From sequence record PP925840.1: a stretch of 64,000 nucleotides of DNA. One strand, written 5' to 3'. Below are positions 60,190-60,948 of this stretch, piece by piece. The notes under the pieces were generated by a model. It was given only the letters and a program-made list of their open reading frames with translations, was not told the origin of the DNA and made no database searches. Source of the stretch: Escherichia phage SholemSchwarzbard. Position 1 is the first letter of the stretch. Every line of letters starts with the position of its first letter. The translations under genes were made by a program, and so were the position numbers.

Positions 60190-60510
60190 TTATTCTTTAA
60201 ATCTAATCAATTTATTCATAGACTTTGAAACTTCTGCACGAACCTCATGTAAGTTTTTAAGCTGTTCAAGACGCTGCTCATAGTAAGCAATTTCATCTTC
60301 TTCGAGACAGTCCTGTGAATCTTCTTTAAGATAACGTGCATAGTCCTGAAAAGCTTTACGGACTACTTCCTGGAAGTCATCAAGACTTTGAATTTTCTTA
60401 GGAGCGGCAGATACACGACGAGGTGCAGTATAATACTCATAACCAAACCCTGCACTCAATTGAGCCATTAGTATTTTTCCTCTGGTTGGAACACTGCACG
60501 ACAAGCCCAC
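60190..60510 (-). CDS. hypothetical protein, 92-106 aa
   Basis: ORF track; likely starts at internal MAQLSAG... Confidence 0.6.
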
Positions 60511-60770
60511 ATACTGGCTTCTTTGAGTTTCGTTTTAGCAATAGTTAACTGATCGAGGCTTTCAGCATAATTCTTCGCGAGTTCATCATCTTCACAATTA
60601 TCTAGTGCTTCCCAGAATTCATCGTATAAAGCGTCAAAGATAAGTCCTAAACGAACTTCAGCGTCTTTAATAGCATTCACTTTACCGATTTTCTCTTCAG
60701 TATGCGGCTTATAACCTTTAATGTCTTCAATCATATTTGACTTCCTCACCAGTACATAAATCATATTCAA
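60468..60770 (-). CDS. acidic helical hypothetical protein, 88-100 aa
   Basis: ORF track; second gene upstream of regB. Confidence 0.6.
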
Positions 60771-60948
60771 CTAAACGAATAGGTTCATGAATGCCATATC
60801 CTTGAACAGAAATTTCTGTCGTAGGATAAATTCCATCAATATCACCCATATTCCAGGCTTCATTAAATTGCTGTTCGCCTGAATTACTAAACCACTCGGC
60901 GAAAGCATTTAGCACATCTTTAGAACCTTCAATAATTATCTTTGCCAT
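60727..60948 (-). CDS. small hypothetical protein, 73 aa
   Basis: ORF track. Confidence 0.6.
   Translation of the reverse strand: MAKIIIEGSKDVLNAFAEWFSNSGEQQFNEAWNMGDIDGIYPTTEISVQGYGIHEPIRLVEYDLCTGEEVKYD

Follow-up and report, generated by a model that had tools for sequence, protein, structure and literature searches.

Two small proteins of phage T4 are the closest described relatives of the genes considered here. T4 Vs.4, also known as Acb2, binds 3′,3′-cGAMP as a hexamer with three ligands and a Kd of about 30 nM (PMC10097602), with values of about 30-84 nM across studies (PMC10097602, PMC10312549), and by itself both binds cGAMP and inhibits CapV in vitro (PMC10097602). In this protein the bases of the ligand are stacked by Y8 and F82, hydrogen bonds and salt bridges are contributed by Y8, H11, K23 and R79, the S74N substitution disturbs the cGAMP interactions, T12 caps a helix, and the hexamer interface is made up of L29, F33, A66, A73 and A77 (PMC10097602). 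T4 Acb2 binds dinucleotides and not cA3 or cAAG, and its exclusion of cA3 has been put down to an unkinked helix together with clashes from Y37, A57, L60, D61 and T64 (Cao et al., PMC10312549). T4 acb2/vs.4 is also necessary and sufficient to trigger the Panoptes OptSE system, and the paper describing this alludes to a binding-site defect in T2 Acb2 (PMC12657218). The Acb2 of Pseudomonas phage PaMx33 (8H2J, 8IXZ; Huiting 2023 / Cao 2023) belongs to the same Pfam family and has the same helical hairpin, but it is only 24.2% identical to T4 Acb2 and also binds cyclic trinucleotides, via R67 and T74; in the T4 type, R67 is replaced by D61 and the helix is unkinked (PMC10312549).

The second protein, T4 Vs.3, has been identified as TadIV-1, which soaks up N7-cADPR, the molecule through which type IV Thoeris (TIR-caspase) signals, with a KD of about 216 nM (Chen et al., Nat Commun 2026, PMC13243611). 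TadIV-1 is a dimer of two-helix hairpins with a ligand pocket formed from a flexible N-terminal loop, and its homologues are divided into long forms of about 90-101 aa, which are active and whose N-terminal extension is needed for that activity, and short forms of about 70 aa, which are inactive; the T4 protein needs R17, R18 and K24 (PMC13243611). T2 is sensitive to type IV Thoeris despite a functional TadIV-1, with under-expression suggested as the cause (PMC13243611).

The window analyzed here, 64,000 nt of Escherichia phage SholemSchwarzbard (PP925840.1), belongs to a T4-like phage, a Tequatrovirus; between positions 59600 and 61400 it shares 99.7% identity with Escherichia phage Ge15, 99.3% with AR1 and 98.8% with RB14. 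Within an unbroken run of minus-strand genes from vs.8 to vs.1, positions 60190-60948 are filled by three tightly packed genes, vs.5, vs.4 and vs.3, directly upstream of regB in the direction of transcription:

61644-62243, minus strand: vs.8, 199 aa
61318-61647, minus strand: vs.7
60948-61310, minus strand: vs.6, GrcA-like autonomous glycyl-radical cofactor (Pfam Gly_radical, 2.5e-18), named so in related phages
60727-60948, minus strand: vs.5, 73 aa, acidic small alpha/beta protein
60468-60734, minus strand: vs.4 = acb2, 88 aa, predicted hexameric cyclic-dinucleotide sponge (anti-CBASS)
60190-60468, minus strand: vs.3 = tadIV-1, 92 aa, predicted dimeric N7-cADPR sponge (anti-type IV Thoeris)
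60158-60186, minus strand: promoter-like site between the vs.3 stop codon and regB, from a consensus scan
59669-60130, minus strand: regB endoribonuclease (Pfam REGB_T4, E 5.9e-69)
59116-59661, minus strand: vs.1, SLT domain

The order regB-vs.3-vs.4-vs.5-vs.6 is also annotated in RB14, T4, T2 and a re-sequenced T4 (MT984581), in keeping with an earlier sequence-only reading of the window that had matched the three ORFs to T4 vs.3-vs.5 by synteny. The genes recognized in that reading are real, but their limits were too long, having been taken from the longest ORFs, which begin at TTG or GTG. The second ORF, placed at 60468..60770 with up to 100 aa, is reduced to 88 aa at 60468-60734 when its ATG start is used, and the third, vs.3, has 92 aa from its ATG rather than the 106 aa of the longest ORF. 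The resulting gene lengths agree with the annotation of RB14 and the re-sequenced T4, and vs.5, vs.4 and vs.3 all start with an ATG behind a GAGGA-type ribosome-binding site. A TAATG junction couples vs.6 to vs.5 and vs.4 to vs.3, vs.5 and vs.4 overlap by 8 nt, and the three small genes are translationally coupled. Homologues of vs.4 were found in 1239 phage records and those of vs.5 in 988. Relative to T4, vs.4 has 10 synonymous and 2 non-synonymous codon differences, and vs.3 has 9 and 3, respectively; the genes are under purifying selection. The three ORFs are real genes and not the product of chance.

Vs.4 lies at the same position as T4 Vs.4/Acb2 (PDB 7UQ2; Jenson et al. 2023, PMC10097602), has the same length of 88 aa and is identical to it at 86/88 residues (98%, E 8.5e-55). 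It passes the Pfam model PF24729, Acb2_Tad1_hairpin, scoring 71.3 bits (E 7.6e-20; cutoff 27), and matches PHROG 717 (E 1.8e-32), the group by which Jenson et al. defined Vs.4 homologues (PMC10097602). The alignment with PaMx33 Acb2 (8H2J/8IXZ) is weak (E about 0.02), and in it the essential Y11 and K26 of the PaMx33 protein are paired with Y8 and K23. Of the three ORFs, then, the second belongs to the Acb2 family. The sequence-only reading had singled it out from its position as the candidate for Vs.4/Acb2, a choice borne out by the identity to 7UQ2 and by a PF24729 score above the gathering threshold; its identification of T4 Vs.4 with Acb2 is in line with the literature (PMC10097602, PMC10312549, PMC12657218), and the acidic character it ascribed to this ORF corresponds to a pI of 4.6.

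The residues of the cyclic-dinucleotide pocket (Y8, H11, K23, S74, R79 and F82) are all kept in Vs.4, as is T12, and so are those of the hexamer interface (L29, F33, A66, A73 and A77), which are invariant across four genera. Since the residues of T4 Acb2 that clash with cA3 (Y37, A57, L60, D61 and T64) are also all unchanged, Vs.4 is predicted to be a T4-type, dinucleotide-only Acb2 that would not bind cyclic trinucleotides. The trinucleotide pocket of PaMx33 Acb2, marked by R67/T74 and a kinked helix, is not seen in Vs.4, which has D61 at the R67 position. Because the dinucleotide pocket is intact, the phage should be Panoptes-sensitive.

Across the Acb2 orthologues of Tequatrovirus, Karamvirus, a Pseudotevenvirus and a Klebsiella phage, four genera of T4-like phages in all, residues 1-36 and 66-88 are almost invariant. 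Residues 37-65, which form the distal end of the helical hairpin, differ widely among these genera both in sequence and in length. Constraint on this end may be relaxed, or selection may act there on a surface recognized by something else.

The neighboring vs.3 is, by homology, itself the characterized sponge gene tadIV-1, which the sequence-only reading had not foreseen. Vs.3 (92 aa) is 97% identical to T4 Vs.3, from which it differs by V21A in the ligand loop, N38K and T64E; all three substitutions are common to RB14, whose Vs.3 is identical to that of the window. Like the T4 protein, it is of the long, active form with a full N-terminus and has the ligand-loop residues R17, R18 and K24 (T4 numbering), and K25, E49 and H74 are also kept. 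Vs.3 further matches UPEC07 TadIV-1 (PDB 9WIW chain A) over its full length (residues 1-92; E 2.3e-38), although UPEC07 TadIV-1 has a 9-residue insertion in the N-terminal loop that is absent from the window protein, and K60 where the latter has S51. In a low-confidence AF2 model of Vs.3 (mean pLDDT 63), residues 1-28 have no secondary structure (residues 1-20 with pLDDT below 50) and helices span residues 29-53 and 57-91; such a disordered N-terminus with two antiparallel helices is in accord with the published structure, though it does not prove the fold.

The molecule name of 9WIW is 'Endoribonuclease', and extra 'endoribonuclease' labels besides that of regB occur in this region of several phage records (phage teqdroes and others). 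These labels look like annotation spill-over from the adjoining regB.

The remaining gene of the block encodes Vs.5, a 73-aa protein with a pI of 4.1 that matches PHROG 1986, a group of unknown function, over its full length. No sequence match to Vs.5 was found in Pfam, NCBIfam or PDB, and NCBIfam likewise gave no meaningful match for Vs.3 or Vs.4. An AF2 model (pLDDT 73) has the element order beta-alpha-alpha-beta-beta; fold searches returned no significant match, and BFVD gave only uncharacterized orthologues from T4-like phages. When 1.84 billion cluster representatives were searched exhaustively with a Vs.5 profile, only 18 hits emerged, among which the long ones (FG-GAP repeat and tail-fibre proteins) showed several matches to a short motif and were discarded as spurious. 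A strongly conserved motif of Vs.5 reads WF..GEQ.F.E plus EP..LVEYD..T.EE. Literature searches by the gene names vs.3 and vs.5 found nothing relevant. On these searches, Vs.5 is an orphan restricted to T4-like phages.

Three other views of these genes were considered and rejected. Vs.3 or Vs.5 as diverged paralogues of Acb2 was ruled out, both being unrelated to it by hhalign (probabilities of 1.3% and 0.3%, respectively). A Vs.5-Vs.4 fusion, hinted at by PHROG 17468 (163 positions) and by BFVD matches of 156-163 aa, was set aside, as the vs.5-like gene of Karamvirus Entb_43 lies upstream of vs.6 and not beside vs.4. Finally, T4 vs.5 as a 58-aa pseudogene was dismissed, since the underlying 1-nt deletion is confined to three legacy records, X04567, AF158101 and NC_000866. 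In the T4 reference (NC_000866, 63381-63557), Vs.5 is annotated with 58 aa, and 36 nt separate its gene from vs.4. The deletion changes GCCGAG to G-CGAG at codons 17/18 and is absent from ten re-sequenced T4 genomes, one re-sequenced T4 (MT984581) being annotated with a 73-aa Vs.5 that is 99% identical to that of the window. The 58-aa Vs.5 of the T4 reference is probably a sequencing artefact.

Directly after the vs.3 stop codon, the promoter-like site at 60158-60186 on the minus strand reads GTTTACT...TGGTATAAT; its pattern, TTTACT-17-TGnTATAAT, matches the consensus at 10/12 positions and includes an extended -10 TG. We take GTTTAC to resemble the -35 element of T4 early promoters. The ribosome-binding site of regB carries GGAG, the RegB target, at 60137-60140, and no GGAG site was found on the sense strand of the three small messages within 60190-60948.

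Several further features of the surrounding region were observed. Two adjacent minus-strand ORFs at 62322-62795 and 62812-63129 (157 and 105 aa) both begin with MKTYQEFI.E, a start that resembles the leader of T-even internal head proteins, and RB14 annotates the first of them (62322-62795) as Ip4. In T4, denV lies between vs.8 and e. No denV is present in the window between vs.8 and the lysozyme gene e (63218-63712), and a tblastn search of the whole window with an approximate T4 DenV query found nothing. Vs.8 (199 aa) has weak P-loop-type matches (AAA_14, E 0.031; Terminase_6N, E 0.09) and may be a small ATPase. In Klebsiella phage Roth79, the upstream part of the same region holds a CDS, truncated by the locus edge, that is labelled 'terminase large subunit'. 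On the other side of the block, a 159-aa ORF at 58306-58785 is the positional counterpart of T4 tk.4, a gene credited in the T4 record with an A1pp (macro-domain) phosphatase motif. This putative macro-domain gene, so called by the T4 annotation, is three genes downstream of the two predicted sponges for nucleotide and ADP-ribose-derived signals.

Taken together, gene boundaries, homology, residue conservation, purifying selection and gene-order variation between genera identify the block as vs.5-vs.4-vs.3 of Tequatrovirus, in which Vs.4 is Acb2, Vs.3 is TadIV-1 and Vs.5 is the product of an independent accessory gene, a reading to which we give a probability of roughly 0.92. From the published near-identical proteins we infer ligand binding, oligomeric state and in vivo anti-defense activity; we likewise infer the timing and level of expression of the block. 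By analogy with the 98%-identical T4 protein, six copies of Vs.4 would interlock to form three pockets at dimer interfaces, each of which would clamp one 3′,3′-cGAMP or related cyclic dinucleotide between Y8 and F82, with H11, K23 and R79 adding hydrogen bonds and salt bridges to the ligand. Sequestration of this kind would keep the CBASS effector from ever meeting its activator, and should also expose the phage to Panoptes, a system guarding against such sponges. Vs.3, by comparison with T4 and UPEC07 TadIV-1, would form a dimer of helical hairpins whose flexible, arginine-rich N-terminal loops (R17, R18, K24) sequester N7-cADPR and so block the caspase-like effector of type IV Thoeris.

A different outcome can be envisaged if the two substitutions relative to T4, C50D and F52L, made this Vs.4 a defective or re-tuned Acb2, as in T2, which would then either give no protection from CBASS or evade Panoptes. 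Natural loss of function is known from T2, and selection by Panoptes could favor altered vs.4 alleles. T2 vs.4 (NC_054931) lies at the same locus, and its residues 9-88 are exactly those of T4, differing from the window only at 50 and 52, but 2 nt are missing from its codons 7/8 (AAGGGTTATAAA to AAGGG--ATAAA; T2 5591-5851 of the locus extract) where the window gene is intact. The annotated T2 Vs.4 starts from another ATG and is without G7 and the base-stacking tyrosine Y8; this fits the remark on a T2 Acb2 defect in the Panoptes paper (noted in PMC12657218). Against such an effect in the window, the frame of vs.4 is intact and every residue important by mutagenesis is present. Positions 50 and 52 fall in segment 37-65, the tip between the helices that varies between genera, far in sequence from the pocket and interface residues. 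The D50/L52 pair is moreover also the RB14 allele, and a protein 100% identical to this Vs.4 is encoded in 7 deposited phages. A defective or re-tuned allele is thus considered very improbable, and a T4-like Acb2 is preferred.

The tight translational coupling of the block (TAATG, 8-nt overlap) and its constant order throughout Tequatrovirus might instead suggest that Vs.5, Vs.4 and Vs.3 form a single anti-CBASS module of three parts, in which Vs.5 and Vs.3 serve the sponge as accessory subunits. T4 Vs.4 alone, however, suffices for cGAMP binding and inhibition of CapV in vitro (PMC10097602), and Vs.3 alone inhibits a different system (PMC13243611). The arrangement also changes between genera: in Tequatrovirus vs.5 sits between vs.6 and vs.4, in Karamvirus Entb_43 its homologue is upstream of vs.6, and in Gelderlandvirus UTK0003 it stands directly before regB with no vs.6, vs.4 or vs.3 adjoining, whereas vs.5 and vs.3 are both missing in Klebsiella phage Roth79 and Cronobacter phage Cronuts, where vs.6, vs.4 and regB are found. 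Since gene order varies in this way, vs.5, vs.4 and vs.3 are better regarded as independent modules than as one machine, and the three-part module is considered very improbable. That Vs.5 is a third anti-defense protein, either a sponge or a direct inhibitor, in a three-gene counter-defense islet is possible but doubtful. In its favor, Vs.5 is a small (73 aa), acidic protein encoded next to two proven sponges; it is confined to T4-like phages, its gene shifts position inside one and the same variable region, and it has a strongly conserved motif. Searches for homology, fold matches and literature, on the other hand, found nothing to connect it with counter-defense, and little weight attaches to proximity by itself where GrcA, RegB and a transglycosylase are encoded in the same region. 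In addition, when a T4 fragment (Part I) including vs.3 was tested gene by gene against type IV Thoeris, only vs.3 was active, although vs.5 may or may not have been among the genes of that fragment (PMC13243611). A role for Vs.5 as a further counter-defense protein is a reasonable guess from its neighbors only, and the fuller proposal, that it has a new fold and makes vs.5-vs.4-vs.3 a compact anti-defense islet of T-even phages, is slightly more doubtful again. The reading of Vs.4 and Vs.3 as separate sponges, with Vs.5 as an independent accessory, is retained.

In distant T4-like phages that have neither vs.5 nor vs.3, vs.6 is followed at once by vs.4, the two CDSs sharing one coordinate as at the TAATG junctions of the window. 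Since the two genes adjoin in phages without the others, the linkage of vs.6 with acb2 predates the block of three genes.

Experimental and structural work has already characterized near-identical orthologues of both sponges, so that the finding itself is already known; identical alleles are already in GenBank, and there is nothing new in them here. The value is one of annotation: in most deposited relatives the genes still go under 'hypothetical protein', and in some vs.3 or its neighbors are wrongly called 'endoribonuclease', so that the names acb2 and tadIV-1 can now be given to them. From these assignments the phage is predicted to withstand both cGAMP-type CBASS and type IV Thoeris and to be sensitive to Panoptes.
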